Positions 10,501 to 51,256 of a stretch of DNA of 64,000 nt are shown one piece after another. The notes below the pieces were generated by a model that ran no database searches, was not told where the DNA came from, and saw only the letters and a list, made by a program, of their open reading frames with translations. Position numbers and translations under genes: made by a program. The first letter of the stretch is position 1. Every line of letters starts with the position of its first letter. The DNA comes from Candidatus Cloacimonadota bacterium (GTDB lineage Bacteria > Cloacimonadota > Cloacimonadia > Cloacimonadales > TCS61), in NCBI GenBank assembly GCA_021735645.1, contig JAIPGP010000005.1, positions 1,908 to 65,907 on the forward strand, in the 5' to 3' direction.

Positions 10501-12302
10501 TCCCGGGTCCACATGGTCCCAGCCCGATTATTGCAGCTTTCTGGGATGATCTTATAAACAGCGGAGGTCATGTTTATACCTATTATGACGCAGCCCAGCA
10601 CTACTATGTGATTGAATGGGATTATATGCATAATGAAGCAACCAGCTCAGAAGAAACTTTCCAGATGATCCTTTATGATCCAAATTTCTATCCCACTACA
10701 TCCGGTGACAGTGAAATTAAGATGCAGTATAAGACAATAAACAATAATAACGCTGGCACATATCGGGCAGATCATGGTCAATATTGTACAGTAGGACTGG
10801 AAGACCCCACAGGAACTATCGGTCTGCAATACACCTATAATAATACATATTCCAATGCAGCCAAGCCTCTGGAAAACCAGATGGCTATCCTCTTCACCAG
10901 CCCTCCGATCCCTCCGGATGGTCCCTTCCTCACTATCGTTGATTATAGTGCTGTTGCCGGCGGTGACAGCTTCATAGAAGCTGGCGAAGAAGCTGTTATC
11001 ACTATCACTCTGGAAAATATTGGAGCAGATACTGCTAATAATATTGATGTGGTAATCACCGAAAATGACCAGTATATAGAGCTTGTGAATGATACAGGTT
11101 CATGTGATCTGGTATTAGCAAATGGCATGGTAACCATACCAGATGCCTTCACGATCAGTATCAGCGAAAATGTCCCTGATTTTTATACTTTCTCTCTTAA
11201 TGCCAATATTTCAAGTGATGAAGATTCCTGGAGCCAGTTAATTGTGCTCACTGCCTATCAGGCAAATACTTTTGCAGTTAATCCAGAATCTATTGATTAT
11301 GAACTTATCTGGGGTAATACCGGCAGCACTTCATTTGAAATAACAAACATTGGGGATGTACCGGTTAATTTTTATATCAGAACAGATGAAACTCACCCAA
11401 CCAGAGATATCACAGGCTCTTTCATGACTTGTGATACAGAAGGATTCACACCTGGTGAAACTACCACCTGGACTTTTACGGCTTATAATGGAGCCGCAGA
11501 CGCTGAATGGATTTCTGATCTCTGGTTAGACTTCCCCTTAGGTGTAACGGTTAATAGTGCCAGCAGCTTTATAGGTGGTTCCGGTGGAGATATGCCCTGG
11601 GATGGTACAACGGGACAAGGTGCTTATGTAAACTGGCATGGTGCATCAGTTAATGACTGGGGATACCTGCATGTAGGCGAAGCTGCATCAGCCGCAGTAG
11701 AAGTGACATTGAGCACAGAATTTGCCGGTGACTTGACCATTAATTATACAATTGGCGGAGATGGCTATGGTAATGACCCTCATCTGGTTGATGGCGAGAT
11801 CATGATGGATTATCCTTTGCGCTGGATAAATCTCAATATGTCATCAGGCACAATTTTTCCCAACCAGTCACAGGAAATCATTGTTAATTTTGATACCAGT
11901 GACATTGAAGAAGCTGTGCATTCCTGCAATATCGTGATCACATCTGATAGCTGGGATGGTAAAACCATTCCTGTTACCCTCACCCCCAGCACTAATGATA
12001 GTGATCCCCAGCAGATACCTGCCAGCAACCTGCTGAGCCAGAACTACCCGAATCCATTCAATCCGCAAACCAGTATTCCTTTCAGCATTAGTCAGCCGGC
12101 TGCCAATGTTACTCTGAAGGTTTATAACATGAAAGGTCAGGCAATCAGAACTCTGCTTAACGCTCCTTCTGAGGCTGGAAATTACTCCCTGAACTGGGAC
12201 GGAAAAGATGATAAGGGCAAGGACGTTGCCAGCGGAATTTATTTCTCTAATCTATCGGTAGATGGAGAAAGACAAACCCGCAAAATGGTGATGATCAAAT
12301 AA
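7536..12302 (+). CDS. Giant (1588 aa) peptidase C25 (gingipain)-family-like protein with Ig-like/CARDB-like repeats, a NIDO-like module and a T9SS C-terminal sorting domain
   Basis: Signal peptide; C25 propeptide/catalytic-domain-like N-terminus (VVLVGDANG..., GDQPYSQLAGNDVLADVLVGRLSV, ILTCSTGSF); repeated NPGE/DPGE Ig-like segments; C-terminus NYPNPFNPQTSIPF...GIYFSNL...RKMVMIK. Confidence 0.85.
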   Translation: MKKFFVFAIVMLIGISLFGAWVTIPEHDGAELVKYTQPERGNISLEFNLDGYQLEQIVKSGNSYSQISYPEEGKILEIGMPDLPVFTRLIAIPDEGTATLTITSSSSRIIKDITVYPQEELLTESEPIRETFSINAEYYQTGGIYPAALAELGEPAIMRDLRLVKVTFCPFQYNAAKRELTIHENIIVEVETSGRGGINAKTADRPRSRAFTNIYQSQVLNYAEVANLREDYQRPAILFIYPDNTTVENSLEYLLDWKDKKGYDVSAAHTGETGTSNTSIKNYIQDAYDDWTNPPEFVVLVGDANGSVAIPSWTETWSWYSGIGDQPYSQLAGNDVLADVLVGRLSVNSVSELQTMIAKSINYERDPYMGNTDWFERAILVGDPSHSGPSTVSTCKAVKTYIQNYNDDFTFNETYTSNWDTGLSNGINQGGSFVCYRGYIGMSGWDTGDINALTNGWMLPLGCILTCSTGSFDGTANSEVFAKAGSATVPKGAIAAYGTATSGTHTCFNNSVTSGIYYGIFIDHIFNPGGALVRGKLNLYTQYPQNPSNYVDIFSHWNNLMGDPSVQLWTGVPQQMTVFYEDEVAAGTNYMQIVVLDPAGTPLQGAWVTARGNDYYQTGFTDINGVYYLDVQDTEIGEDYELTVSSHNCLIFEEEFTVELADIYLDIENLVLNDDGGDGIANPGENIILELTINNYGTNPATSVEASLESFNDLVTVTSATTQLDDIAVGESVNNNDLTISIDPAALGSMTIQLNLTLDSDQGTWIAPIFLSIEGAVLEITDYTVVDANGVIDPGETREIYFDITNLGEITAMNVTGELECLNRRITIIDSLADFGSVMPGDDVNNYNDRYEITASSAILPGSQIPVSIHFTNANGYDAMAAFMIEVGIVTVSDPLGPDDYGYYCYDDEDSDYDKCPEYDWIEINDIGDDTGLYVTNVPQDDCDIENIDFPADFTFVFYGEEYDMFTVATAGWISPGGTEVKSFMNWTVPGPHGPSPIIAAFWDDLINSGGHVYTYYDAAQHYYVIEWDYMHNEATSSEETFQMILYDPNFYPTTSGDSEIKMQYKTINNNNAGTYRADHGQYCTVGLEDPTGTIGLQYTYNNTYSNAAKPLENQMAILFTSPPIPPDGPFLTIVDYSAVAGGDSFIEAGEEAVITITLENIGADTANNIDVVITENDQYIELVNDTGSCDLVLANGMVTIPDAFTISISENVPDFYTFSLNANISSDEDSWSQLIVLTAYQANTFAVNPESIDYELIWGNTGSTSFEITNIGDVPVNFYIRTDETHPTRDITGSFMTCDTEGFTPGETTTWTFTAYNGAADAEWISDLWLDFPLGVTVNSASSFIGGSGGDMPWDGTTGQGAYVNWHGASVNDWGYLHVGEAASAAVEVTLSTEFAGDLTINYTIGGDGYGNDPHLVDGEIMMDYPLRWINLNMSSGTIFPNQSQEIIVNFDTSDIEEAVHSCNIVITSDSWDGKTIPVTLTPSTNDSDPQQIPASNLLSQNYPNPFNPQTSIPFSISQPAANVTLKVYNMKGQAIRTLLNAPSEAGNYSLNWDGKDDKGKDVASGIYFSNLSVDGERQTRKMVMIK

Positions 12303-12378: not shown

Positions 12379-12417
12379 AACTGCTGGATAAATAGAAGAA
12401 TCAGGATGGGATATTTT

Positions 12418-15400
12418 ATGAAGAATTGCGGCTTATTGATTTTGATAACACTGCTGAATATTACATTGTGGGGATTGCAGATTGATATACCTGATAATGC
12501 TCAGAACAAATTAGTGGAATATGAACAAATTGATGAAGGCAATATTCATCTGGAATTTAACCTGGATAAATATGAAAGAGAAGAACTCACCAGAGCTGAG
12601 GTCACCTACACAAAAATAAGCAATCCGGAAGCTGGCAGTTTATTAGATATCGGCATGCCAGACCTGCCGGTTTTCACCCGCCTGGTCGCTATACCTGATG
12701 AGGGGAATCCCCTCTTGACCATAACTTCTTTAAACTCACATACAATAAAAAATATCATGATCTATCCGCAAGAAGAAATCCTGACTGAGACTGAAACCGA
12801 GCGAGATGTTTTCACAATTGATTCCGAATACTATCAGCAGGGAGGTATTTATCCGGCTGCTGCAGCAGTGCTGGGAGAACCGGCAATAATGCGTGATATA
12901 AGACTCGTAAAAGTCACCTTCAATCCCTTCCAGTATAATGCTGCTGCCAGGGAACTGGTAATACACGATAATATCTGCGCGGAACTTACTATCAGCGGCA
13001 GTGGAGGCATAAATGTCAAAACCGGAAACCGCCCACCATCACGTGTCTTTGACAATTTATACGCTTCTTCAGTATTAAATCATGCGGAAACCACAAATCT
13101 GCGAACCGATTTCCAGAGACCGGCTATTTTATTCATTTATCCGCAAAACAACAATGTTGAGAACAATCTGCAATATCTCATGGACTGGAAAAACAAAAAA
13201 GGATTTGATGTTACTTCTGCCAGTACCAGCCAAACCGGTACAACATCTGCCATGATCAAAAACTATATCCAGAACGCTTATGATAACTGGGAAAATCCCC
13301 CTGACTATGTGGTTTTAGTAGGCGACGTGAGCGGGACAATTTTACTTCCTTCCTGGTATGAAAGCTGGAGCGGTACGCAGGGGATTGGTGATCATCCCTA
13401 TGCACAACTGGAAGGTAATGATGTATTGGCAGATATTATCTTAGGCAGAATATCGGTAAATAATATCAATGAATTGCAAACCGTCATCGCCAAATCTATA
13501 AATTATGAAAGAGAACCTTATATGGATAATACCCAGTGGTTTGAAAACGCAATATTATTTGCTTACGGCGGACCGGGTAAAATTGCCACCTGTGAAACAG
13601 TAGAAGGATATATCAGCATTCACAATAACGATTTCTCTTTTACCGAAATTTACTACAGTAACTGGGTATATGCGTTAGACCAGGCCTTAAATACGGGAGC
13701 TAGTTATTTATGCTGGCGGAGTCAAGGAGTGGATTGTGACTGGAATAATAATAATATATATGCCTTGAACAATGGCTGGATGCTGCCTTATGGTGTATTA
13801 TGCACCTGCTTTACTGCTGATATTTATGGAAGCAGTCTCAGTGAAGCTTTTGTGAAAGCGGGAACTTCTACCATCCCAAAAGGCGGAATTGCCGCAGTGG
13901 GCACTTCCACGGGAATGACTTCCGGCTGCTTCAATAATTGCATTACAAATGGTGTCTTTTATGGCATTTTTATCGATAATATCTATACTACCGGCGGAGC
14001 GTTAGTGCGGGGAAAACTGAATCTCTATCAGCAATATCCCAGTAATCCCAGCAATCATGTAAATTGCTGGTCACATTGTAATAATCTCATGGGCGATCCT
14101 TCTATAGAGCTGTGGACAGGTATTCCTCAACCCATGCTCGTGAATATCCCGGATGAGGTGGCTTTCGGGACGAATTTTATGGAAATTAACCTGACTGATG
14201 AGGCTGGTGTTCCTCTGGAAAATGGCTGGGTTACTGCCCGTGGAGATAATGATTATTACCAGACTGGCTATACAGATATGCAGGGTAAATATTATCTGGA
14301 TATCTCAGGCACAGAAATGAACCAGACATTTGAAATCACTATAACCTCACATAATAAAATACCTTATGAAAATGAGATCAACGTTATTCAGGCTGAATAT
14401 CTTCTTGATATTGCTCAGGTAAACTTCCTGGACTCACAGGGCGATGGAATCCCTAACCCCGGCGAAGAAATCACTCTGGAACTCACTATTGCCAATGACG
14501 GCTCCAGCGATCTCACAGGTATTTCTGCAGAACTGGTTTCTCTAAATGATAACGTTTCAGTTGTTATTTCCAATACTGATTTAGGAGACCTTAACAGCGG
14601 AAGTCAATTAGTAAATTCCGATCTTGCAATTTATCTCGACTCGGCAACTCCTGGAGGCAGCAGAGTCCAATTACAGCTCATTCTCACTTCTGATGGAGAA
14701 ATATATGTGATACCGCTCTTTATAGATATTTCCGGTGCTACACTCTATATAGCCAGTTATGTTGCCCAGGATTCTAATGGCATACTTGATCCTGGAGAAT
14801 CTGCTGATATCTATTTCATGATTGAAAATCTGGGTGCTATTGCTGCAACTTCAATTTACGGTGAACTGGCTTGCTTTAACAGCAGGATCTCGATTCAGGA
14901 CAGTACGGGATTTTTTGGAGATATTGCCCCGGGAGGCACTGCCTATAATTTTTCTGATACTTTTGAAATCACTGCCGACAGTAACATTATTCCTGGCACA
15001 CAAATCCCGGTGACTATCACTTTTACGAACCTTAATGGTTATAATGAAACCTGTTCTTATTTAATTGAGATAGGCACTGTAACTGAGGAAGACCCTTTAG
15101 GTCCCGATGAATACGGATATTACTGCTATGATGATGGAGATACTGCTTACGATGAATGCCCCGTTTATGACTGGATAGAAATACACAGCATCGGAGATAA
15201 TCTGGGCTTATATACCCCAGGTGACGAAGCTGATATCGAAGATGTTGAACTGCCGGCTGATTTCTCATTTGTCTTTTATGGCTTAGAATACGATATGATC
15301 ACTGTAGCTTCTGCCGGCTGGATTTGCCCCGGTGGAACAGATGCCGCGGAATTTATGAACTGGACCCTGCCCGGAGCTGGAGGAGCAAGTCCCATGATCG

Positions 15401-17181
15401 CAGCTTTCTGGGATGATATCCACAATGGCTATAATGGAGGTGTATATACTTATTATGACGCTGCCCAGCATTATTTTATCATCGAATGGGATCACATGCA
15501 AAATGAGCATAATAATGAAGAAGAAACATTTCAAATATTGCTCTACGACCCTGATTACTATCCGACTACTACAGGTGACAGCAAAATAAAAATACAGTAC
15601 AAGGCATTTACTAATGCCAATATCGGTGAATATCCCTATCACGGAGCTGATCATGGTCTCTATTGCACTGTAGGACTGGAAGACCATACTGCCACAAGAG
15701 GATTACTTTATACTTATAATAATACCTATCCCACTGCTGCAAAACCGATCACCTCTGAATCTGCCCTGCTGTTCACCGTTTCTCCTGTCCCCCAGGATGG
15801 TCCCTTCCTTAACATTGTAGATTATGAAGCCTATGCCGGAGGTGACTGCTTTATCGAAGCCGGCGAAGAAGCCATGATCTCGATTGTACTGCAAAATTTA
15901 GGGGCTGAATCTGCTAATGACGTGCAGGTTATTCTCTCCGGAGATGATCAGTATATTGATATTCTGAATGATACCGCTAATTGTGACCTTGTTTTGGCAA
16001 ATTCCATGGTAACAATTCCCAATGCTTTTTTAATCAGTGTCAGTGAAAATGTCCCTGATTTCTATTCTTTTTCTCTTAATGTAAATATCAGCAGCAATGA
16101 AGAAGCCTGGAACCAGCTGATCATACTCACCGCTTATGAATTAAACACCTTCACAGTTGATCCGGCGGTTATAAATTACGAAATGATCTGGGGTAATTCT
16201 GACAGCACTTCTTTTGAACTCGCTAATATAGGTGATATTCCCATAAATTTCTATATCCGCACAGATGAAACTTCTACCAGCAGAGATGTTATGGGTTCTT
16301 TCCTGGAATGTGATGCCACAGGTTTTACTCCCGGGCAATCCACTTACTGGACATTTACGGTGCATAATGGCGCAATTGATAATGAATGGATTTCTGATGT
16401 CTGGATAGATTTCCCCTTAGGGGTTACCCTGATTGAAGCCGGAGATTTTGTCGGTGGTTCCGGTGGAAATATGTTCTGGGACGAAACTACTGGTCAAGGT
16501 GCCAATGTCAACTGGCATGGAACTACTGTAAGTGACTGGGGAGTACTGCATTATGGAGAAGTAGCCTCCGCTACAATGTTTGTAAATCTCAGCACCGAAT
16601 TTGCCGGTGATCTCACTATTAATTATTCAATTGGCGGAGACGGCTATGGCAATGAACCTCATGTCATAAATGGCGAGATCATTCTGGAATACCCGCTGCG
16701 CTGGATTAACCTCAATATGTCATCTGGTACAATACCTCCCGGTCAGTCACAGGAAATCTGCGTTGATTTTGACACTGCTGATATTGAAGAAACCGTGCAT
16801 ACCTGCAATATCGTGATCACATCTGATAGCTGGGACACTAAAACCATTCCCGTCACGCTAATTCCTGTCGCCCAGGGTAATGATCCGGAATCAATTCCTG
16901 CCAGTAATATATTGAGCCAGAATTATCCTAATCCCTTCAATCCCCGAACGATTATTCCCTTCAGCATCTGCGAGTCAGCTGCAAATGTGACCCTGAAAAT
17001 ATATAATCTGAAAGGTCAGGCAATCAGAACTCTGCTGAATGCCCCGACAGAACCAGGCAATTTCACCTTGTACTGGGATGGAAAGGATGATAACGGCAAA
17101 GATGTTGCCAGTGGTATATATTTCTCTAATCTCTCAGTAGATGGAGAAAAGCAGACCCGCAAAATGGTGATGATCAAATAG
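12418..17181 (+). CDS. Giant (~1587 aa) peptidase C25-family-like paralogue with T9SS C-terminal sorting domain
   Basis: Colinear with 7536..12302 over its full length and ends in the same RKMVMIK. I prefer the ATG at 12418 (MKNCGLLILI... signal peptide) over the ATG at 12406 used in the ORF track. Confidence 0.85.
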   Translation: MKNCGLLILITLLNITLWGLQIDIPDNAQNKLVEYEQIDEGNIHLEFNLDKYEREELTRAEVTYTKISNPEAGSLLDIGMPDLPVFTRLVAIPDEGNPLLTITSLNSHTIKNIMIYPQEEILTETETERDVFTIDSEYYQQGGIYPAAAAVLGEPAIMRDIRLVKVTFNPFQYNAAARELVIHDNICAELTISGSGGINVKTGNRPPSRVFDNLYASSVLNHAETTNLRTDFQRPAILFIYPQNNNVENNLQYLMDWKNKKGFDVTSASTSQTGTTSAMIKNYIQNAYDNWENPPDYVVLVGDVSGTILLPSWYESWSGTQGIGDHPYAQLEGNDVLADIILGRISVNNINELQTVIAKSINYEREPYMDNTQWFENAILFAYGGPGKIATCETVEGYISIHNNDFSFTEIYYSNWVYALDQALNTGASYLCWRSQGVDCDWNNNNIYALNNGWMLPYGVLCTCFTADIYGSSLSEAFVKAGTSTIPKGGIAAVGTSTGMTSGCFNNCITNGVFYGIFIDNIYTTGGALVRGKLNLYQQYPSNPSNHVNCWSHCNNLMGDPSIELWTGIPQPMLVNIPDEVAFGTNFMEINLTDEAGVPLENGWVTARGDNDYYQTGYTDMQGKYYLDISGTEMNQTFEITITSHNKIPYENEINVIQAEYLLDIAQVNFLDSQGDGIPNPGEEITLELTIANDGSSDLTGISAELVSLNDNVSVVISNTDLGDLNSGSQLVNSDLAIYLDSATPGGSRVQLQLILTSDGEIYVIPLFIDISGATLYIASYVAQDSNGILDPGESADIYFMIENLGAIAATSIYGELACFNSRISIQDSTGFFGDIAPGGTAYNFSDTFEITADSNIIPGTQIPVTITFTNLNGYNETCSYLIEIGTVTEEDPLGPDEYGYYCYDDGDTAYDECPVYDWIEIHSIGDNLGLYTPGDEADIEDVELPADFSFVFYGLEYDMITVASAGWICPGGTDAAEFMNWTLPGAGGASPMIAAFWDDIHNGYNGGVYTYYDAAQHYFIIEWDHMQNEHNNEEETFQILLYDPDYYPTTTGDSKIKIQYKAFTNANIGEYPYHGADHGLYCTVGLEDHTATRGLLYTYNNTYPTAAKPITSESALLFTVSPVPQDGPFLNIVDYEAYAGGDCFIEAGEEAMISIVLQNLGAESANDVQVILSGDDQYIDILNDTANCDLVLANSMVTIPNAFLISVSENVPDFYSFSLNVNISSNEEAWNQLIILTAYELNTFTVDPAVINYEMIWGNSDSTSFELANIGDIPINFYIRTDETSTSRDVMGSFLECDATGFTPGQSTYWTFTVHNGAIDNEWISDVWIDFPLGVTLIEAGDFVGGSGGNMFWDETTGQGANVNWHGTTVSDWGVLHYGEVASATMFVNLSTEFAGDLTINYSIGGDGYGNEPHVINGEIILEYPLRWINLNMSSGTIPPGQSQEICVDFDTADIEETVHTCNIVITSDSWDTKTIPVTLIPVAQGNDPESIPASNILSQNYPNPFNPRTIIPFSICESAANVTLKIYNLKGQAIRTLLNAPTEPGNFTLYWDGKDDNGKDVASGIYFSNLSVDGEKQTRKMVMIK

Positions 17182-40435: not shown

Positions 40436-40583
40436 TGAGAACTCCTTTCTCGCTATATTCTTATCCAAATAACACTTTTTTTATCTTGCTCTCTTAATGT
40501 CAACTATTTTCCCAATAAATCTGATTTTGACAGATCATGACAGTTCAATTTTCTTAATATTCTCACTGCTCTACCATCAAAGG

Positions 40584-40628
40584 GTCTTATAGGTCTTATA
40601 GGGCTTATAGGGCTTATAGGGCTTATAG
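40584..40628. repeat. Five tandem 9-bp units (GKCTTATAG)
   Basis: GGTCTTATAG GTCTTATAG GGCTTATAG GGCTTATAG GGCTTATAG. Confidence 0.9.
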
Positions 40629-40775
40629 ATAATCAAAATAACGTCATTTAATCTGTAAAGAAGATTTTCGGCGAAGTGATTGAGGTAAATTCTGGCATCC
40701 CCCTGTTTTTTTTAGCAATTCATTATCTAATTGTCTGATATTATTGAGATTAAACACAATAATTTATATCTATCT

Positions 40776-40992
40776 AACCATTCTCATTAACACCAGATTT
40801 CAATCTGGTGCCCCTGATTAGAAGAAGTTCGCTAGTGGTTTCAACCACTTCATAAAATAGTGAATGCTCCAATTTGTCAACAATTATAATATTCCATAAT
40901 CACATATATTTATATAAGAAGTCACTGAAGTGACTACACTTCGTTCGTATATTTATACCACCAACTAAAGTTGGTGGTTAATGAGAATGGTT
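40776..40992. repeat. 217-bp element bounded by a perfect 16-bp inverted repeat and containing four hairpins (MITE-like element or structured RNA candidate)
   Basis: AACCATTCTCATTAAC (40776-40791) matches GTTAATGAGAATGGTT (40977-40992). Internal hairpins: CACCAGAT-ttca-ATCTGGTG (40791-40810), AGTGGTT-tc-AACCACT (40834-40849), AGTCAC-tgaa-GTGACT (40920-40935) and ACCACCAAC-taaa-GTTGGTGGT (40957-40978). Confidence 0.7.
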
Positions 40993-41057
40993 TTCAGATT
41001 AAATTAGAGATTACATATCGATGATAAATTTCGGGGGGATACCAGATTAAGCTAAAT

Positions 41058-44000
41058 TTGATTGACATGAAAATGAGTAAGGTTAAAAGACGAAATAAGG
41101 AAGGAAATGAAATGTTAAAAGATATAAATGAAAAATCAACAGCTTTGGAAAGTAATTTACGGGAGACAAACCGGGGCAGCAAAATTATTCCGGAAAAATA
41201 TCAGTGGCTGTTGTCTCAGTCAATTGGTAAAAAGGGTATAAATGAGCGTTGTAAGACTCTATTAGATGAGTATAATCATCCTTTTTCTAACCATAAAGTA
41301 GCAACAGAAGATCTGGTGCAGGTTGCTTTAAGTGATTTATGGTATTATGATCAGCTGCCTGAACGCCGGAGGATATATGAGTTGATATTAGGAATATTTT
41401 CTGATTTATTGCAGCGTTATATAGAAGTAGATATTCAAGACCGTCTGATTCAGACCCTGATTCGGTTTATTAGTAAGCTTGCTGAGCAGGATAACTATGA
41501 TCTGGTATCAATCCAGTCAGGTCTGGAGCTGATAAAAAACATCTATCGCAGTGATTCTATACTACTGGAGCGTAACAGCACTTATATCAAGAATAATTTC
41601 AAGGTTGTATATGAGATTCCGGAAATGAGAGAGGTTTGTCTGGATTATTGCCGTAAGTTATTAAGCGGAGTTTATTCACGCTGGCATGATTTACCGCAAT
41701 TAGAGGAATGGTATAAGGAAAAACAAGCACTTTTTGGAGAAGATTATCAGTCATTGATCCATGAGACGGGCAGGGAATTTATCGAATCTGAGCGAAAACG
41801 TCTGATGTCCATCAAGAATTGGGACGATGTCAGAGGAATGTCATTTTATGGTGATCTGGCTCAGAAATACCGGAGCCTGATTAGCCGCTTTGCGACCAGT
41901 CAGGAAAAGATTTATTATATTCTCTATTTATTTAAACTGGATGACATGTATCAGATGAGAAAGAGTTTATTGCTGGACTTGAACCGAACAATGCGTCGAG
42001 TGGGTGAAGAAATAGAATTAGAAGAGATGCAGAAATTTATGCAGGAAATATTTGGCTTGTTTGCAGAGCTAAAGGATAATTACCGCGAGACGGTTCTGGA
42101 CAGCATTTTATCATTGGGCAAGACGATAATAAGCTATGGCAATAAAGATTTACGACATTTATTCATAGATTTAGTGATCGGGCTGGGATTTGTCTCGCCA
42201 CGTGATGTAAAGATAGATAACGAGTGGCAGGTAGTGATAGACAGCAATCACATCAAGAATATCAGGGTATGGCTGCAGCTTGTGGAGCTGGACCCGATCG
42301 GGATGAACCGCTTGCTAAGTGCGCTTATTATAAATTTACGCGTAGGCGGTATATTTGTCTCTGATACGGATTTATTCCAAAAAGATATATCAAGGTTTCT
42401 GAGAGGAAATATTCAGCCTATCTTTAAACAAGTAAAGCAATTAGCCAGATTATTCCCTATTTATTATAATAAAATTGGGGCAGAAGGCGAATTACGGGAA
42501 TTGACAACAGCTATTGATGAGATGGGTCGCAGGCAGGACCGGCTGCTGCATTTTTTCCGCAAACAGGTTCACACTGAGAGCAATAATACTAACGTGGATC
42601 TGGCAAGGGATATACTGGAATACTGGGAGGGTGGTTATAGTGCGAAGGCGAAAACAACTCTACCAGATGATGTAAGAAAATTTATGAATACTGAAAATGA
42701 ATTTTATATTTTTAATCATCAGCTGGTGAAATTGTTGTGCGGGGAATATAAGTGCACGGTAATGGGTCTGGCAGAGCTGGATAGAAAAATCCTGGAGCGG
42801 TCCATAGATGAGAAACAGGAAATACCGGAGGTATACCGCCGGAAAGTGATGTATTTGATTCGGATTTATAATATTCTGCAGGAAAAGTATAGTTTTGGGA
42901 TAACAGATTTGGATAGTACCTTGCGGAAAAGCGGATTATGCGAAGAAAAGGATATCAAGTTATTGCTGGAATCATGGAAAGGTAAAAAATGGGCAGAGGC
43001 ATTGGAGAGTTTATTTGCGATCATGAAGAAGCTTGTGAAAGTAATATTTTCTTCAGAGCCTACAGAGGTGCGGGAAGACATCTATTATAAGCGTCATGTT
43101 GCTGCAGGGATACCTTCGATGTATGGCGAATACCGAGAGGCAAGGTTTGATGCCTTGGGCTTGATTTTCCGGCTGGAACAATTGGGTAAAGTGCTTTTGG
43201 AGAAAATTGAGAACAGAATAGACCTGATCTATTTCACCCATAAAACTCTGGAGCGGATTTATAGATTATTAAGGTTATATGAGACCGGATTGGAGATGGA
43301 TGGCATCAGTAATCCGGGATTCAGTTCCAATCTTGAGATGTTTCGCTATAGTCTGGAATCCAGCTTCACTTTGGATCAGTACCAGAACATTTTTCAGTTT
43401 CTGGCAGAGAATGCAAAGGAAATAGTGAAGGAATATTTTTACCGGATATATGAGCAGCCTTTGATGAAGATCACTGTGCAATATTTAGCAGAAGGCGGGA
43501 TAGAAGAGCGAATGCAGCAATCAGACCGCCTGTCGGAAAAATTTTACCGGGATGTTTTAACCTCGGCTTTTATTATCCAGAAGCTGGATAATTTTATCAT
43601 GACGCTCTTGAAATCTAACCGTGATATTGTCCAAAAATATGAAAAACAACACTTGATTATGCTCTTAAATTATGAGCCAGACCAGATAATGAGTCCGCTT
43701 TATTTATCTACTCCCGAGGTGGACAATCCGATATTTCTGGGTTCAAAGGCATATTTCTTGAAAGTAATGCTGGAAAAGGGATTTCCCATTCCACCAGGAT
43801 TTGTGCTTTCTACAGAGCTGTTCCGGCACCGTCCACTGGTTCTGCTTGAGGGTGCCTTTCGCACAGATATCTTGAATAAGATACGTAAGCAGGTGAAAAG
43901 ATTGCAGAGCCTGGCAGGCAGAAAGTTTGGTGACCCGGCAAATCCGATGTTACTAAGTGTGCGTTCCGGTACAGCGATTTCGATGCCGGGAGCGATGAAT

Positions 44001-45212
44001 ACTTTTTTAAATGTGGGAATGAATGATGAAATTGCTGAAGAGATGAGTAAGCAGAAAGGTATGGGCTGGACTGCCTGGGATTCTTACCGGCGTTTATTGC
44101 AGAGCTGGGGAATGGCGCAAAAAATTGAGCGGGATAAATTTGATGAGATCATTCAGGGTTATAAAACGGAGTTTGGGATTGCGATGAAGCAGAACCTGAG
44201 CACTGAGCAGATGAAACGGATTGCCCTGGCATATAAGAAAAAGATTCTGGATTGCGGAAAAGAATTTATCGATGATCCTTTTGAGCAGCTGTTTAAGGCT
44301 ATTGGATATGTGCTGGACAGCTGGGGCTCAGATCGCGCTTTGGTATATCGGGAGCAAATGCAGATAGCACATGAATGGGGAACTGCTGTTGTAGTTCAAC
44401 AAATGGTGATGGGTAATATGAGCGAGAATTCGGGGACTGGTGTCCTTTTTACCCATGACCCGGCAAGTAATGAACCAGGCTTAAAGCTCTATGGTGAATA
44501 CACTGTGTGCAGTCAGGGAGAAGATGTAGTTGCCGGACTGGTGAATGTGAAACCCTTAACCCGCCAGCAAGGTAAAGTCTTAAGCGATAATGGCAATGAC
44601 AGCCTGGAAGCAAAACTGCCGCTGATTTTTAATCGCTTAAATGAACTGGCAGCAAAAATGATCTATGACCATGGTTTCAGCCACCAGGAAATAGAATTTA
44701 CTTTTGAGTCTGAGAATCCGGAAGATTTATATATCCTGCAGACCCGGAATCAGGACATTCAAACTAAGCGGGACTTCAAGATATTTTCTGCCAAGCGGGA
44801 AGAAATGGTATTTGCCGGTAGCGGCATAGGCATAGGTGGCGGAGCATTGAACGGGATTTTAGCCTTTAATGAAGATGATTTGCATACTTACCGTCAGCAG
44901 TATCCGGATATGGCAATGATCTTAGTCCGCCCCGATACGGTTCCAGATGATATCGGCATGATCTTTAAATGTGATGGCTTGATCACGGGTAGAGGTGGAG
45001 CAACCTCTCATGCAGCTGTAACAGCAGTGAGGCTGGGTATAGTGTGTATAGTAAATTGCCGGCAACTGGTTGTTGATGAAGAGAAAAAATGTTGTCAAAT
45101 CCTTGATAAAAAACTGTTTAGCGGAGATAAAGTGGCGATTGATGGTCATTTTGGGAATATCTATATCGGTAATTATGATGTGCAAACGGAAAGGATGTCT
45201 TATCAGGGATAG
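41058..45212 (+). CDS. 1384-aa protein: ~870-aa unrecognised N-terminal region fused to a PPDK-type ATP-grasp nucleotide-binding domain and swivel phosphohistidine domain; no PEP/pyruvate TIM barrel
   Basis: The C-terminal ~510 aa are colinear with PPDK: FGDPANPMLLSVRSGTAISMPGAMNTFLNVGMND, YRRLLQSWG, GTAVVVQQMVMGN, SGTGVLFTHDP, QGEDVVAGL, QEIEFTFE..LYILQTRN, ILVRPDTVPDDIGMI, GLITGRGGATSHAAVTAVRLG. The start is uncertain: TTG at 41058, or ATG at 41112, which follows AGGAAGGA. Confidence 0.8.
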   Translation: MIDMKMSKVKRRNKEGNEMLKDINEKSTALESNLRETNRGSKIIPEKYQWLLSQSIGKKGINERCKTLLDEYNHPFSNHKVATEDLVQVALSDLWYYDQLPERRRIYELILGIFSDLLQRYIEVDIQDRLIQTLIRFISKLAEQDNYDLVSIQSGLELIKNIYRSDSILLERNSTYIKNNFKVVYEIPEMREVCLDYCRKLLSGVYSRWHDLPQLEEWYKEKQALFGEDYQSLIHETGREFIESERKRLMSIKNWDDVRGMSFYGDLAQKYRSLISRFATSQEKIYYILYLFKLDDMYQMRKSLLLDLNRTMRRVGEEIELEEMQKFMQEIFGLFAELKDNYRETVLDSILSLGKTIISYGNKDLRHLFIDLVIGLGFVSPRDVKIDNEWQVVIDSNHIKNIRVWLQLVELDPIGMNRLLSALIINLRVGGIFVSDTDLFQKDISRFLRGNIQPIFKQVKQLARLFPIYYNKIGAEGELRELTTAIDEMGRRQDRLLHFFRKQVHTESNNTNVDLARDILEYWEGGYSAKAKTTLPDDVRKFMNTENEFYIFNHQLVKLLCGEYKCTVMGLAELDRKILERSIDEKQEIPEVYRRKVMYLIRIYNILQEKYSFGITDLDSTLRKSGLCEEKDIKLLLESWKGKKWAEALESLFAIMKKLVKVIFSSEPTEVREDIYYKRHVAAGIPSMYGEYREARFDALGLIFRLEQLGKVLLEKIENRIDLIYFTHKTLERIYRLLRLYETGLEMDGISNPGFSSNLEMFRYSLESSFTLDQYQNIFQFLAENAKEIVKEYFYRIYEQPLMKITVQYLAEGGIEERMQQSDRLSEKFYRDVLTSAFIIQKLDNFIMTLLKSNRDIVQKYEKQHLIMLLNYEPDQIMSPLYLSTPEVDNPIFLGSKAYFLKVMLEKGFPIPPGFVLSTELFRHRPLVLLEGAFRTDILNKIRKQVKRLQSLAGRKFGDPANPMLLSVRSGTAISMPGAMNTFLNVGMNDEIAEEMSKQKGMGWTAWDSYRRLLQSWGMAQKIERDKFDEIIQGYKTEFGIAMKQNLSTEQMKRIALAYKKKILDCGKEFIDDPFEQLFKAIGYVLDSWGSDRALVYREQMQIAHEWGTAVVVQQMVMGNMSENSGTGVLFTHDPASNEPGLKLYGEYTVCSQGEDVVAGLVNVKPLTRQQGKVLSDNGNDSLEAKLPLIFNRLNELAAKMIYDHGFSHQEIEFTFESENPEDLYILQTRNQDIQTKRDFKIFSAKREEMVFAGSGIGIGGGALNGILAFNEDDLHTYRQQYPDMAMILVRPDTVPDDIGMIFKCDGLITGRGGATSHAAVTAVRLGIVCIVNCRQLVVDEEKKCCQILDKKLFSGDKVAIDGHFGNIYIGNYDVQTERMSYQG

Positions 45213-45287
45213 AATATTCATTGACAGAAAAAGTATGGTATTATAATTAATAGGTAATAAAAATCGAATACATTAAGGAGAATTCTA

Positions 45288-46520
45288 ATGGGAAATATCT
45301 TAGGTATCAATGGTTTAGGTAGAATAGGTAAACTTACCCTCTGGAATCATATTGCCTTAGACCATTTTGATGGATATGTGATCAATGTGGGCAGAGAAAT
45401 AGGTAATAGCCTGGATGATTTTATCAGGACAATAGAATCCGATTCCACTTATGGTCACATAGACCGTTTTTTATATGGTGCATCAGGTAAAAAAGCTCAG
45501 ATCGAAATTATCAATGAAAAACAGGGACTACTGAAAATCAATGGCAAAAAAGTCTGGGTGCTGCGTAAAGAACGTAATCCATTGAATTTGCCCTGGAATG
45601 AGATGGGCGTCCGATTAGTAGTGGATTGCACGGGAGTGTTTCTTGACCCTACCGTGCCAGTGGATAATCCCAGGGGCAGCGTGCGGGGGCATCTGGAAGC
45701 CGGAGCGGAAAAAGTATTATGTTCGGCTCCTTTCAAGATCAAAGACAAAGCTCTCAGCATGCCGGAAGATAGTAAACTATTTGTCTATGGTGTCAATCAT
45801 CATGATTATAACCCCAGCCAGCATAATATTCTTTCAGCAGCCAGTTGCACAACTACCGGGCTGGCTCACATGATGATGCCGCTGCTGGAAAATGAGGCAG
45901 CATCTAAAATAGTGACAGCTTCCATGTCCACAATTCATGCCTCCACCAGTACGCAAAGCATCCTGGACAGCGTTCCTAAAGCCGGAGCAAAAGACTTGAG
46001 AAAAAACCGCTCTATTATGAATAATATAATTCTTACTTCTACCGGAGCAGCTAAGGCTCTGGAACAGATACTGCCACAAATCAAAGATATCGGGTTCATG
46101 GCAGACAGCGTTCGCATACCTACTAATACAGTATCAATGATCAGCTTGAATATCACTTTCCATGAGCAAATGAATGAAAAATTAGAGCCTGTGATCAATG
46201 GTGAATTTCTGAATAATATCTACCGCGCTGCTGAAAAAAATAAACAAAAAGGACTGCTGGTCTTCAGCGAAAGACAAAATGTTTCCAGCGATCTGATCGG
46301 GATACGGGCAGCAGTAGTGATTGAGGGTAACGATACTCATACCAGGACGGGATTCTTGAAGCTGAATAGTGTCATGCTGCAAGAACTGGGACTTAATGCC
46401 AAAGACAATATCTCACTGCCGGTTACCCATGCCAAAATTTTTGGCTGGTATGATAATGAGTTTGGCAGCTATGTGAATATGCTGGGTAAATTAACCTTGC
46501 ATGTTGATGAAAACTTATAG
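45288..46520 (+). CDS. Divergent, long (410 aa) glyceraldehyde-3-phosphate dehydrogenase family protein
   Basis: INGLGRIGK (NAD fold), SAASCTTTGLAHMM (catalytic Cys), STIHASTSTQ (His), NIILTSTGAAKAL, RIPTNTVSM, WYDNEFGSY. It is about 75 aa longer than classical GapA. Confidence 0.75.
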   Translation: MGNILGINGLGRIGKLTLWNHIALDHFDGYVINVGREIGNSLDDFIRTIESDSTYGHIDRFLYGASGKKAQIEIINEKQGLLKINGKKVWVLRKERNPLNLPWNEMGVRLVVDCTGVFLDPTVPVDNPRGSVRGHLEAGAEKVLCSAPFKIKDKALSMPEDSKLFVYGVNHHDYNPSQHNILSAASCTTTGLAHMMMPLLENEAASKIVTASMSTIHASTSTQSILDSVPKAGAKDLRKNRSIMNNIILTSTGAAKALEQILPQIKDIGFMADSVRIPTNTVSMISLNITFHEQMNEKLEPVINGEFLNNIYRAAEKNKQKGLLVFSERQNVSSDLIGIRAAVVIEGNDTHTRTGFLKLNSVMLQELGLNAKDNISLPVTHAKIFGWYDNEFGSYVNMLGKLTLHVDENL

Positions 46521-46725
46521 CAGAATGTAGCGTAATGCAGTTAAATGTATTATATGGGAGGTAGATAAAAAAGCGGAGATAAAAAAAATTGACAGATCGG
46601 GAAGTGAGAAATTACTGACCCTAAAGTTAATAAAGGATTTTATATGGTGTTTAATTCCGCAGATAAGACGGGAATAATGATGAAGGTAGAGAGCACGATA
46701 ATTGCTCTTGAAAGCATAAATCATA

Positions 46726-46760
46726 AAGCATTCACTCTCAAGGTGGATGCTTTTTTTGTT
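46726..46760 (+). terminator. Hairpin plus T-run immediately upstream of nadC (terminator of the upstream unit, or an attenuator)
   Basis: AAGCATTCAC / GTGGATGCTT (one G-T pair) followed by TTTTTTTGTTTT. It ends 12 nt before the nadC ATG. Confidence 0.5.
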
Positions 46761-46771
46761 TTGGGGCTTGT

Positions 46772-48735: not shown

Positions 48736-50460
48736 ATGCAGAAAAGATGGAAAATCGCTGATGCACTGGCAGAATCTGATATAGAAGCCCAAAAGCAGAT
48801 TGTTGAAAATTTTCATTGCCCGGACATGATTGCTGAAATGCTGATTAGAAGAGGCTTGAAAACCGAACGGGAAATTAATCTATTTTTTAAACCCGAACTG
48901 GATTGTATTCATGATCCTTTTTTGTTCAAAGATATGGAAAAGGCTGCTCTACGCATTGTTCAAGCAATAGAAAATAACGAACTGATTACGATATATGGCG
49001 ATTATGATGTGGATGGAACCACCTCGACCGCACTTTTGTATCTGGGTCTCAAAAAAATGAATGCTCAGATTGACTACTATATTCCCCATAGAATGATCGA
49101 TGGCTATGGACTCTCAATTTCCGGCGTTGACCTGCTGAAAGAAAACGGCACCTCACTGATCATCAGTGTGGATTGCGGTATTAATTCTATCAGTGAAGTG
49201 GACTCGATCAATGAATTGGGGATGGAAATAATTATCACAGATCATCATAATCCCAAGGAACAATTACCGAATGCCCTGGCTATTATCAATCCCAAACTGC
49301 CAGATAGTATATATCCGTGTCAGGAACTGGCTGGTGTGGGCGTTGCCTATAAATTATTAATGGCTGTTTATATCAAGCTGGGGGTGGATACTCACGAATT
49401 GTGCAATAAATATCTTGATCTGGTGGCATTAGGGACTATTGCCGATATAGTGCCGCTGGTGGGAGAAAACAGAATATTTGCCGCTATTGGAATGGACAGG
49501 CTGTGCAAGAGGCAGAATATTGGCTTAAATGCCTTGATCAGCCTGGCAGGGTTGACAGAGAAGACACTGAATGCCGGTGATATCGTGTTTGGCATTGCTC
49601 CCCGCATTAATGCTGCCGGCAGAATGGGCACAGCTCTCACTGCCGTGGAACTAATGGTTTCCAATGATGAAACTGAAAGCCGTGAACTGGCTCAGCAGAT
49701 AGAGCAGCAGAATTCCCTGAGGCAACAGATAGACCAGCGCACCTTTAATGAAGCCTGCCAGATAATTGAGGAAAAATATAAAAATATTGAAGAAACACTT
49801 TTCATCGTGGTTTCGTCTGATGAGTGGCATCCCGGAGTTATTGGTATTGTCGCTTCCAAACTGGTAGAAAAGTACTACCGCCCTGCTGTGATGATTTCTT
49901 TTAAAGATGGCATTGGCAGCGGTTCGGGACGCAGTATAGCAGATTTTGACCTGTTTGATGCTCTGAGCCATGTTCAGGACAGCCTCGATACTTTTGGCGG
50001 ACATAAATATGCCGCCGGTTTATCTATTTATGCCGAATATATCGATACTTTTGAAAACCAGATCACTAAATATATGAAATCTGTTATCTCACCTGAATTA
50101 TTGGTGCCGCCCTTGAAGATAGATTCAAAGCTGGAGCTTTATGAAATTAATGAAAACCTGCTCGAATGGCTAAACCGGTTTGCCCCTTTTGGACCGGGAA
50201 ACATGAAACCGGTATTTTTTACCAGTCTGGTTACTATCGTGGGCTATCCCTACTGCGTAGGTAAAAATCATCTGAAACTCAAAGTCATGAAAGATGGCTG
50301 TGAATTAGATTTAATCGGCTTTAATCTGGGAGATTACCTGCCATTCCTTAAGAAAGGTAAAATGATTGAAATTGCCTATTCTCTGGAATTCAATACCTGG
50401 CAGGGAAGAACCAGTATTCAAGGAAAATTAAAAGACCTGCATTTTGAAAAAGATATTTAG
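48736..50460 (+). CDS. recJ: Single-stranded-DNA-specific exonuclease
   Basis: DHH-family motifs (YGDYDVDGTTS, SVDCG, ITDHHNP) and DHHA1 (GGHKYAAG). Confidence 0.92.
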   Translation: MQKRWKIADALAESDIEAQKQIVENFHCPDMIAEMLIRRGLKTEREINLFFKPELDCIHDPFLFKDMEKAALRIVQAIENNELITIYGDYDVDGTTSTALLYLGLKKMNAQIDYYIPHRMIDGYGLSISGVDLLKENGTSLIISVDCGINSISEVDSINELGMEIIITDHHNPKEQLPNALAIINPKLPDSIYPCQELAGVGVAYKLLMAVYIKLGVDTHELCNKYLDLVALGTIADIVPLVGENRIFAAIGMDRLCKRQNIGLNALISLAGLTEKTLNAGDIVFGIAPRINAAGRMGTALTAVELMVSNDETESRELAQQIEQQNSLRQQIDQRTFNEACQIIEEKYKNIEETLFIVVSSDEWHPGVIGIVASKLVEKYYRPAVMISFKDGIGSGSGRSIADFDLFDALSHVQDSLDTFGGHKYAAGLSIYAEYIDTFENQITKYMKSVISPELLVPPLKIDSKLELYEINENLLEWLNRFAPFGPGNMKPVFFTSLVTIVGYPYCVGKNHLKLKVMKDGCELDLIGFNLGDYLPFLKKGKMIEIAYSLEFNTWQGRTSIQGKLKDLHFEKDI

Positions 50461-51256
50461 TGTTTTATTTATCTGCGGGTTATCAGCCTGCACACTTTAT
50501 AATTCCGGCAGCTCTGCCAGACCGGCAGGATTTTCTGAAATACTGCTTTTGAATACTAATATTGCCGTAGAAAAAGCTTGCTATAATTCCCTGAAGCAGG
50601 TTACATATATCTGGGAATCAAATACAGAAAAAATCCACATCTTCAAACAAAATAAACAGATTAATACTATTGGCGGCGAGGGATTTGACCGGGCAAATTT
50701 CCAGAAGCTGACAGATATCTGCCTGTCTCCCGATGGAGATATCTTTGCTCTGGACAGCCCTGATCGAAGTCTCAAGAAATTCGATGAGAAAGGTGAATTG
50801 AGAGCTGTTATTAAAATTGATGCTGACTTGAGCCCTCTACTGGTGGCAGTTGCACTTGACCAGAAAATTTATGTCTATGGCGATAAACGTAAAGAAATTG
50901 TTGTCTTAAATTATAAGGGTAAAGAACTCGAAGCTTTTGGCAGTATGCAATTTTATGAGCCTGCCAGCCTGGAACTGTATAATGACCTGATAGCTGTTTA
51001 TGAGCCTCTAAATGATATTACTGTTTTTTTTAGCAGATTAGGACAGGTTGTAGATGAGCAGAAAGGTCACTGTTATATTGAAAACCGGCAGGTATATTGT
51101 GCAGGCAGCTTCTTTCTGCAGCAGGTGAACGGGCAGAATAAATTTGCTGTTAATACCTCTCCCTGGCAGAAAGTTTTTTTCCAATCTCCAGAAATTATTC
51201 TTTCTGACGGCAATAAATTATTAGTGGGAATGATTAAATATGATGTTCAAAGATAA
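50444..51256 (+). CDS. Lipoprotein, possibly NHL-repeat-like beta-propeller
   Basis: Lipobox ICGLSAC. Repeated segments of the type LSPDGDIFALDSPDRSLKKFDEKGEL. The function call is weak. Confidence 0.5.
   Translation: MKKIFSVLFICGLSACTLYNSGSSARPAGFSEILLLNTNIAVEKACYNSLKQVTYIWESNTEKIHIFKQNKQINTIGGEGFDRANFQKLTDICLSPDGDIFALDSPDRSLKKFDEKGELRAVIKIDADLSPLLVAVALDQKIYVYGDKRKEIVVLNYKGKELEAFGSMQFYEPASLELYNDLIAVYEPLNDITVFFSRLGQVVDEQKGHCYIENRQVYCAGSFFLQQVNGQNKFAVNTSPWQKVFFQSPEIILSDGNKLLVGMIKYDVQR

Follow-up and report, generated by a model that had tools for sequence, protein, structure and literature searches.

What does a pyruvate phosphate dikinase (PPDK) phosphorylate when it has no pyruvate-binding half, and why should such a protein be encoded beside a glyceraldehyde-3-phosphate dehydrogenase (GAPDH)? 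The question is raised by two adjacent genes in a 64,000-nucleotide stretch of DNA from a Candidatus Cloacimonadota bacterium (assembly GCA_021735645.1, contig JAIPGP010000005.1, positions 1,908 to 65,907 of the forward strand), hereafter the window, in which position 1 is the first letter. The first gene, BIG (41112..45212, + strand), encodes a half-dikinase of 1366 amino acids (aa) composed of an N-terminal domain (N-domain), an ATP-grasp domain and a swivel phosphohistidine domain, and was delimited from its open reading frame (ORF), Pfam and NCBIfam matches, and homologues. The second, GAPL (45288..46520, +), encodes a long GAPDH paralogue of 410 aa, identified by Pfam and NCBIfam matches and by alignment, and lies 75 nucleotides (nt) downstream on the same strand, exactly where the original prediction for this DNA had placed a GAPDH-family ORF. 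Our best guess is that the two form a two-enzyme module acting at the 3-phosphoglycerate (3-PG), 1,3-bisphosphoglycerate (1,3-BPG) and glyceraldehyde-3-phosphate (G3P) step. Since hundreds of species of anaerobic bacteria carry the uncharacterized pair of BIG and a GAPDH, the pair probably represents a step in triose-phosphate metabolism that has gone unrecognized.

Residue numbers in BIG refer to the 1366-aa protein that begins at ATG 41112. The mechanically called ORF opens earlier, at TTG 41058 (41058..45212, +), and the length of 1384 aa given previously is corrected here to 1366, so that earlier residue numbers are higher by 18. Translation almost certainly begins at ATG 41112, since a Shine-Dalgarno-like AAGGAAGGA, read directly from the sequence (41097..41105, +), lies 6 nt upstream of it and the homologues have lengths of 1354-1372 aa; the TTG is probably not a start codon.

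The dikinase half and N-domain of BIG

Two Pfam families matched the large ORF, PF01326 (PPDK_N, E=1e-30) and PF00391 (mobile His domain, E=5e-16), both in the C-terminal third, and no match to PF02896, the phosphoenolpyruvate (PEP)/pyruvate TIM barrel, was observed at E<=0.1. The best NCBIfam model was that of true PPDK (TIGR01828), which scored 366.4 bits and was thus under its cut-off of 843.45, and the best match in a profile search of the PDB was PPDK 1kbl with 361 bits. Alignment to 1kbl placed the PPDK-type ATP-grasp nucleotide-binding domain at residues 875-1214 (43734..44753, +; PPDK residues 17-338) and the swivel phosphohistidine domain at residues 1231-1362 (44802..45197, +; PPDK residues 389-514), with the catalytic His1300 of the GGATSHAAV motif encoded at 45009-45011 (+). 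The same alignment showed that K22, R92 (SVRSG), E323 (EIEFT), Q335/R337 (LQTR) and H455 (GGATSHAAV) of PPDK are kept in BIG, and His1300 was invariant in 57 sequences of the BIG family. The residues of the ATP, Mg and phosphate sites and the catalytic His are therefore all present, and an intact PPDK-type ATP-grasp/His relay is supported at the level of sequence. BIG terminates at about PPDK residue 518, immediately short of the barrel. The colinearity with both PPDK domains and the stop at the point where the barrel would start, each read from the DNA in the original prediction, were thus borne out, as was its forecast of the domain search, including the lack of any match in the first ~870 residues.

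Compared with PPDK (EC 2.7.9.1; C. symbiosum 1KBL), BIG keeps the ATP-grasp and swivel His domains colinear and retains the catalytic residues, but it has no TIM barrel and instead carries an 865-aa all-alpha domain on the N-terminal side of the ATP-grasp, so that the presumed acceptor domain comes first and not last. The relay is PPDK-like, in contrast to that of rifampin phosphotransferase (Rph), HpeHI and glucan water dikinase (GWD), which are PEP-synthase-like (water dikinases), have other domain orders and carry acceptor domains unrelated to that of BIG. NCBIfam models of this group matched BIG weakly (<=47 bits), e.g. NF041857 (rifamycin phosphotransferase) with 31.8 bits against a cut-off of 999; TIGR01418 gave 69.8 bits against 739.75, and PEP synthase and Rph types overall reached at most 84 bits. 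In the rifamycin phosphotransferase type the order is ATP-grasp, acceptor, swivel His, whereas in BIG the acceptor domain would precede the ATP-grasp.

The N-domain (residues 1-865; 41112..43706, +) was delimited on an AlphaFold2 (AF2) model as all-alpha with one beta-hairpin. Pfam, searched at a threshold as loose as E<=0.1, matched nothing in the N-terminal ~870 residues, NCBIfam likewise gave no match, the PDB profile search returned no match for the N-domain, and the anti-phage defence models of PADLOC-DB matched neither BIG nor GAPL at E<=0.01, on which ground a defence system was rejected. The AF2 model, built from the 57-sequence alignment, had a pLDDT of 84 and a pTM of 0.73, with the hairpin at residues 654-675, and a separate model of residues 365-865 had a pLDDT of 83.5 and a pTM of 0.79. 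When the whole N-domain was compared with the PDB by Foldseek, only HEAT/ARM solenoids (karyopherins, CAND1) were returned, at TM 0.1-0.2, and the core model (365-865) had no match at E<=1e-3. The description of this region as mostly helical and unrecognized therefore held, and neither structure search brought up a characterized family that would explain the protein.

Conservation within the N-domain was concentrated in two blocks (n=57 throughout). Block 1 (residues 401-500; 42312..42611, +) had a mean conservation of 0.83 with 29 invariant positions and contains the motifs GGIFxSDTDLFQ, IGAEGxLR and RxDRLxHFxRKxxHTExN. Block 2 (residues 651-700; 43062..43211, +) had a mean of 0.77 with 19 invariant positions and consists of the beta-hairpin, E.IYxKRHxAxGIPSMYGxYxE, and the following helix; the hairpin tip (660-668) was of low confidence in the model. 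Together the blocks hold ~48 invariant positions in 150 residues, on par with the ATP-site block (residues 951-1000; mean 0.82, 17 invariant) and the catalytic-His block (residues 1251-1300; mean 0.74, 18 invariant). The weakest stretch of the N-domain, residues 101-250, had means of 0.39-0.47 and 2 invariant positions. Such a clustering of invariant K, R, H, D and E in the blocks, in inter-helix loops and in a flexible hairpin is what we would expect of an active site that takes an anionic, Mg-dependent substrate. The data support a conserved large domain, probably of new fold, that stands in place of the pyruvate barrel.

A scan that took one genome per species yielded at least 576 confirmed BIG relatives from about ten mostly anaerobic phyla. 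A database search returned abundant full-length homologues (97-100% coverage, 43-80% identity). With the scan included, hundreds of genomes had full-length homologues of 41-80% identity, each an unbroken ORF of 1350-1430 aa, and the mean column identity was 61%; the features of BIG and GAPL are for that reason beyond chance. The carriers include Cloacimonadota, Calditrichales, Clostridia, Oscillospiraceae, Syntrophomonadaceae, Acetobacterium wieringae DSM 1911, Geobacter, Desulfobacteraceae, the cultured deltaproteobacterial strain NaphS2 (locus L038), Bacteroidales, Lentimicrobium, Ignavibacteria, Chlorobiota, Dehalococcoidia, Aminicenantes and CSSED10-310. BIG itself is 100% identical to hypothetical protein K9M99_01280 of a Candidatus Cloacimonetes metagenome-assembled genome (MAG), and homologues carry the public names 'hypothetical', 'PEP/pyruvate-binding domain-containing protein', 'pyruvate, orthophosphate dikinase' and 'ppdk2'. 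When 1.84 billion cluster representatives were searched with a profile restricted to the N-domain, 680 clusters (50% identity) were retrieved at E<=1e-3. All full-length matches examined also contained PPDK_N, and PEP-utilizers too wherever the C-terminus was present; two short matches that were checked proved to be contig-end fragments, and the N-domain was not seen apart from the dikinase half among the family members examined. The sole added domain observed was an extra N-terminal hemerythrin (PF01814) in three cluster representatives (P0196, P0189, P0216), which suggests an input of O2, redox state or iron in a sub-branch of the family.

Linkage of BIG to GAPDH-family genes

Gene neighborhoods were compared in a BIG-centred sample of 80 genome loci, extended to 165 loci for the clustering of neighbors. 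A GAPDH-family gene was observed beside BIG in 74 of the 80 loci, with two others (L026 and L064) cut too close to BIG to judge. GAPL lay directly downstream on the same strand in 56 of the 80 (52 complete and 4 cut by contig ends), and these copies were 54-65% identical to that of the window. In 11 of the 56, a short GAPDH variant (~334 aa) was also found immediately upstream of BIG, giving a three-gene operon. Sixteen loci, mostly of Bacteroidales, had no GAPL and a short GAPDH upstream of BIG, either a canonical gapA, usually divergent and ~150 nt away (2.8 kb in L018), or the same-strand short variant; two further loci (L062 and L080) also had an adjacent GAPDH-family gene. Viewed from GAPL in an independent metagenome collection, 77 loci were informative, and in 74 of them BIG was directly upstream at a distance of 70-370 nt. 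The two-gene module suspected from the window alone is thus conserved as neighbors from either side.

The GAPDH neighbors fell into three clades, namely GAPL, the short variant and canonical type I gapA, with L028 standing apart as a divergent singleton. On TIGR01534 (cut-off 367.2) canonical gapA scored 435-437 bits, the short variant 357-362 (two scored) and GAPL 313-326. The short clade carries the motifs SNSSCTTNCVAI and TVHPFTNNQ and a Ser in place of Gly209; its genes end no more than 72 nt before BIG or overlap it slightly, often in a GAPDH-BIG-GAPL operon, and were observed in L019, L040, L045, L047, L048, L051, L057, L058, L059, L071, L072, L074, L075 and L077. The singleton, from a CSSED10-310 MAG (L028:8993-9991), is a very divergent GAPDH-like gene upstream of BIG that scored 198 bits on TIGR01534; Thr179 and one S-loop Arg are replaced, and it may be non-canonical in function.

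No other conserved neighbor was found. Clustering of all ORFs in the 80 and then the 165 loci returned BIG, GAPDH-family genes and antisense shadow ORFs, and the lineage-specific neighbors were unrelated. A gene with a CHAD domain, which is polyphosphate-associated, immediately follows BIG on the opposite strand in a Bacteroidales locus that has no GAPDH neighbor (L013:14124-15005), a single case. Only one of the 165 loci, L163 (GCA_054007995.1, JBPNEB010000013.1, 3991-12919), had pgk or tpi near BIG. Its gene order is rpoN-hpf-ptsN-rapZ-EIIA(man)-GNAT-gap(335 aa)-BIG(1426 aa)-GAPL(420 aa)-pgk-tpiA-secG, i.e. the module is inserted in a classical gap-pgk-tpi operon, and the GAPL of this locus scored 325.5 bits on TIGR01534.

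The GAPL of the window belongs to the GAPDH family by its two domains (PF00044 and PF02800) and scored 312.9 bits on TIGR01534, below the curated cut-off. Residues were checked in an alignment of 53 GAPL sequences and in an alignment to 1k3t. Cys149, Thr150, His176, Thr179, both S-loop arginines (Arg195 among them), Thr208, Gly209, Arg231 and Asn313 were kept in all 53; the catalytic Cys187 and His217 of the window protein are encoded at 45846-45848 and 45936-45938 (+). Because the catalytic residues and those of both phosphate sites are retained throughout, GAPL is predicted to be a catalytically intact phosphorylating GAPDH, whose substrate would carry a C3 phosphate and an acyl-phosphate. 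Like type I GAPDH (GapA), it has Rossmann and catalytic domains, the Cys149/His176 dyad, the Ps and Pi sites and the WYDNE motif; it differs in being ~75 aa longer through seven family-specific conserved insertions, in the replacement of Asp32 and in its nearly obligate tie to BIG. One insertion, of 25 residues with the invariant E..HTRTG...PV.HA, stands just before WYDNE. The reading of this protein as an atypically long GAPDH homologue with the NAD fold and the Cys/His pair intact was correct, and it is no ordinary GapA, given its sub-threshold score and an identity of 25-32% to the short GAPDH genes beside BIG in other genomes. Across phyla GAPL was more conserved (54-65% identity) than BIG (41-48%).

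The Asp32 site reads VVNxGRE in all six GAPL sequences displayed, against (G/A)IND in canonical enzymes. In NAD-specific enzymes Asp32, at the end of beta-2, is the ligand of the NAD ribose 2'-OH, and it is absent from some NADP-using gluconeogenic GAPDHs. Its loss in GAPL suggests the use of NADP(H), which would fit a gluconeogenic role, and the NADP-dependent gluconeogenic GapB of B. subtilis may be offered as a functional analogue. The GAPDH associated with ArsJ (NF033735) is likewise a specialized paralogue dedicated to a partner in the same operon. Two specialized assignments of GAPL were tried and rejected: the ArsJ type (159.2 bits against a cut-off of 450, with no arsJ neighbor) and erythrose-4-phosphate dehydrogenase (Epd, TIGR01532; 117.7 bits against 530.55).

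Candidate reactions of the BIG-GAPL pair

The earlier proposal of an unknown-substrate dikinase paired with an acyl-phosphate/aldehyde oxidoreductase still appears to be the best description of the pair, and it is better grounded now. As to the substrate, we tentatively favor, at somewhat less than an even chance, a dikinase that interconverts 3-PG and 1,3-BPG and is coupled to GAPDH. We consider this reaction the most likely because the three clades of neighboring GAPDHs share a reaction and not a surface, and 1,3-BPG is specific to that reaction. BIG would first autophosphorylate His1300 from ATP, probably with conversion of inorganic phosphate (Pi) to pyrophosphate (PPi) as in PPDK, a chemistry that is likely since its nucleotide domain is PPDK-like and not PEP-synthase-like. 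The swivel domain would then ferry the phosphoryl group to a site built by the N-domain blocks 401-500 and 651-700, where it would be passed to the carboxylate of 3-PG to yield 1,3-BPG, and GAPL or a neighboring canonical GAPDH would reduce this to G3P, possibly with NADPH. In the reverse direction, BIG and GAPL would form ATP from AMP and PPi.

The module would in this form be an AMP/PPi-linked alternative to phosphoglycerate kinase (PGK), as PPDK and PEP synthase are to pyruvate kinase. A rough estimate based on textbook values for the free energy of hydrolysis places ATP + Pi + 3-PG <-> AMP + PPi + 1,3-BPG near equilibrium, and the module could then drive gluconeogenesis when the energy charge is low or, in glycolysis, generate ATP from AMP and PPi. 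The most specific version, in which BIG is a '3-phosphoglycerate, phosphate dikinase' with its acceptor site in a catalytic domain of new fold and forms, with a dedicated and possibly NADP-dependent GAPDH, a PPi/AMP-linked PGK bypass in many anaerobic phyla, is one that we put forward as doubtful.

Several observations count against the assignment to 3-PG. In 4 of the 80 loci, among them the one from the cultured Acetobacterium wieringae, no GAPDH-family gene was found near BIG, and none stood beside more divergent BIG relatives or in the hemerythrin-fused locus examined (L082). In L163, PGK shares the operon with BIG, so BIG is no replacement for PGK there; with pgk in the same operon, it would complement PGK. 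The modelled N-domain appears to resemble neither a 3-PG-binding nor any other enzyme fold, and its sole Foldseek matches, at the low TM noted above, are of a type that typically binds proteins. Finally, the acceptor substrate is purely what we infer, as is the joining of the conserved blocks into one pocket.

The alternative that fares best, which we regard as unlikely but serious, is that BIG serves in regulation, as a histidine (di)kinase directed at a protein: it would autophosphorylate from ATP, bind GAPDH through its helical, solenoid-like N-domain, and then phosphorylate GAPDH or modulate it according to energy or redox state. It has a precedent in VadK (Rv1127c) of M. tuberculosis, a barrel-less PPDK derivative with an apo mass of ~50.5 kDa that autophosphorylates on His and binds enzymes of the methylcitrate cycle (PMC13400623). 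BIG resembles VadK in the loss of the PPDK barrel, in the retention of the ATP-grasp and catalytic His and in its tie to one metabolic node, and it has the residues that the same ATP/Mg-dependent His autophosphorylation would require. The two differ in their partner (the methylcitrate cycle for VadK, GAPDH for BIG), in distribution (actinobacteria such as mycobacteria, Nocardia, Streptomyces and Rhodococcus against mostly anaerobic lineages) and in size, as VadK is a small two-domain protein with no extra domain. NF004531, the 534-aa PRK05878 model, which we take to represent the VadK-type truncated PPDK, gave BIG 272 bits and its cut-off of 456 was not reached; together with the 865 extra conserved residues, this speaks against a simple equivalence. 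The solenoid matches, the hemerythrin sensor domain on some family members and the existence of genomes with BIG and no dedicated GAPDH would all suit a regulator. However, partners as dissimilar as the GAPDH clades (25-32% identical to GAPL) are hard to fit to one protein-recognition surface, the N-domain motif blocks with their many invariant positions are enzyme-like, and the solenoid matches are faint and leave the conserved core without any match.

A dikinase for some other acceptor, e.g. glycerate, glyceraldehyde, another sugar acid or a polymer, with GAPDH linked through a shared intermediate (G3P or NAD(P)H), is in our judgment decidedly unlikely. The ATP-grasp/His relay has been recruited to new acceptor domains repeatedly: Rph, GWD and HpeHI use it on very different substrates, YvkC and PigC/RedH are further ATP-grasp and swivel-His enzymes with a non-pyruvate acceptor domain, and PigC/RedH, with an acceptor domain of its own, again acts on a different substrate. 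The fold of the N-domain gives no clue that would narrow the choice. Against such an acceptor, no further pathway gene is conserved beside the pair, GAPL retains both phosphate sites of an enzyme acting on G3P and 1,3-BPG, and the single extended context found was gap-pgk-tpi.

We consider it improbable that BIG has no separate acceptor site, such that the phosphorylated swivel His docks on GAPDH and exchanges its phosphoryl group with the acyl-enzyme or with bound 1,3-BPG, the N-domain serving as a cradle for the GAPDH tetramer. In its favor are the GAPL insertions with invariant His, Arg and Thr (E..HTRTGF...PVTHAK), which might provide a docking or phosphate site, the size and solenoid-like character of the N-domain, and the very tight coupling of the two genes. 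Yet BIG is also paired with canonical gapA, which has no such insertions, and the conserved charged blocks of the N-domain suggest a site of its own. We know of no precedent for direct exchange from a swivel His at a GAPDH active site, and none was found in the literature. The last possibility, that the locus is an artefact or ordinary, has next to nothing to recommend it beyond the names 'pyruvate, orthophosphate dikinase' and 'ppdk2' on homologues, since a misassembled or fused ORF or a decaying ppdK is ruled out by the uninterrupted ORFs in hundreds of genomes (the two short matches checked being contig-end fragments), a plain PPDK by the TIGR01828 score (366 against 843) and the lack of PF02896, and a glycolytic GapA by the TIGR01534 score of GAPL.

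In the literature, no description was found of the BIG architecture or of the BIG-GAPL pair, nor of a '3-phosphoglycerate dikinase' or a PPi-dependent PGK. One paper containing the words 'phosphoglycerate dikinase' was a rice seed proteomics study, and a G. sulfurreducens proteomics paper concerned ordinary PpdK. What would be new here is the combination of a phospho-relay already known with an acceptor domain whose fold and reaction are not. Since the catalogue of reactions in lower glycolysis and gluconeogenesis is regarded as complete, a widespread enzyme pair tied to GAPDH would be notable. If 3-PG and 1,3-BPG are indeed interconverted by way of AMP and PPi, the pair would add an energy-coupling option at the one step of substrate-level phosphorylation thought to be invariant; it would bear on the balance of ATP, AMP and PPi in PPi-dependent fermenters and syntrophs and would alter flux models of digesters and sediments. 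Paired with PGK, a '3-phosphoglycerate, phosphate dikinase' would give an ATP-driven, PPi-generating cycle. Irrespective of what BIG phosphorylates, its 865-aa domain represents a large and highly conserved fold for which neither structure nor function is annotated. As a self-contained unit of two genes, the module is small and easily expressed, and the question is therefore directly testable.

Transcription unit, upstream spacer and neighboring genes

BIG and GAPL probably form one bicistronic transcription unit, a reading supported by the layout of the DNA. No terminator-like site was found between them, a Shine-Dalgarno sequence, AAGGAG (45275..45280, +), lies 7 nt before the GAPL start codon, and a terminator-like hairpin with a 12-bp stem followed by a T-run (46725..46763, +) is located after GAPL and before nadC.

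Upstream, BIG is separated from the divergent rpmE (- strand) by an intergenic spacer of 643 nt (40469..41111). The spacer had been described as repeat-rich and as preceding the module. A 9-nt tandem repeat, AGGGCTTAT, is indeed present in 5.2 copies at 40581-40628, as are four short perfect palindromes with 2-nt centres, CACCAGATTtcAATCTGGTG, AGTGGTTtcAACCACT, AGTCACTgaAGTGACT and ACCACCAACTaaAGTTGGTGGT (40791-40810, 40834-40849, 40920-40935 and 40957-40978), but nothing links them to the module. The repeat and palindromes look like possible protein-binding sites. No Rfam family matched the spacer, and no Rex box was found upstream of BIG in 76 loci, the window spacer included.

The genes flanking the pair are housekeeping genes unrelated to it: rpmE, DUF1385, prfA and a CorC-type transporter upstream on the minus strand, and nadC, a CT398-like protein, recJ and lnt downstream. 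No second GAPDH, PGK, TIM or PPDK was found within the 64-kb window. A 270-aa ORF without a Pfam match at E<=1e-3 lies between recJ and lnt (50444-51256). Elsewhere in the window, two giant ORFs stand next to each other on the + strand, at 7536-12302 (1588 aa) and 12406-17181 (1591 aa).

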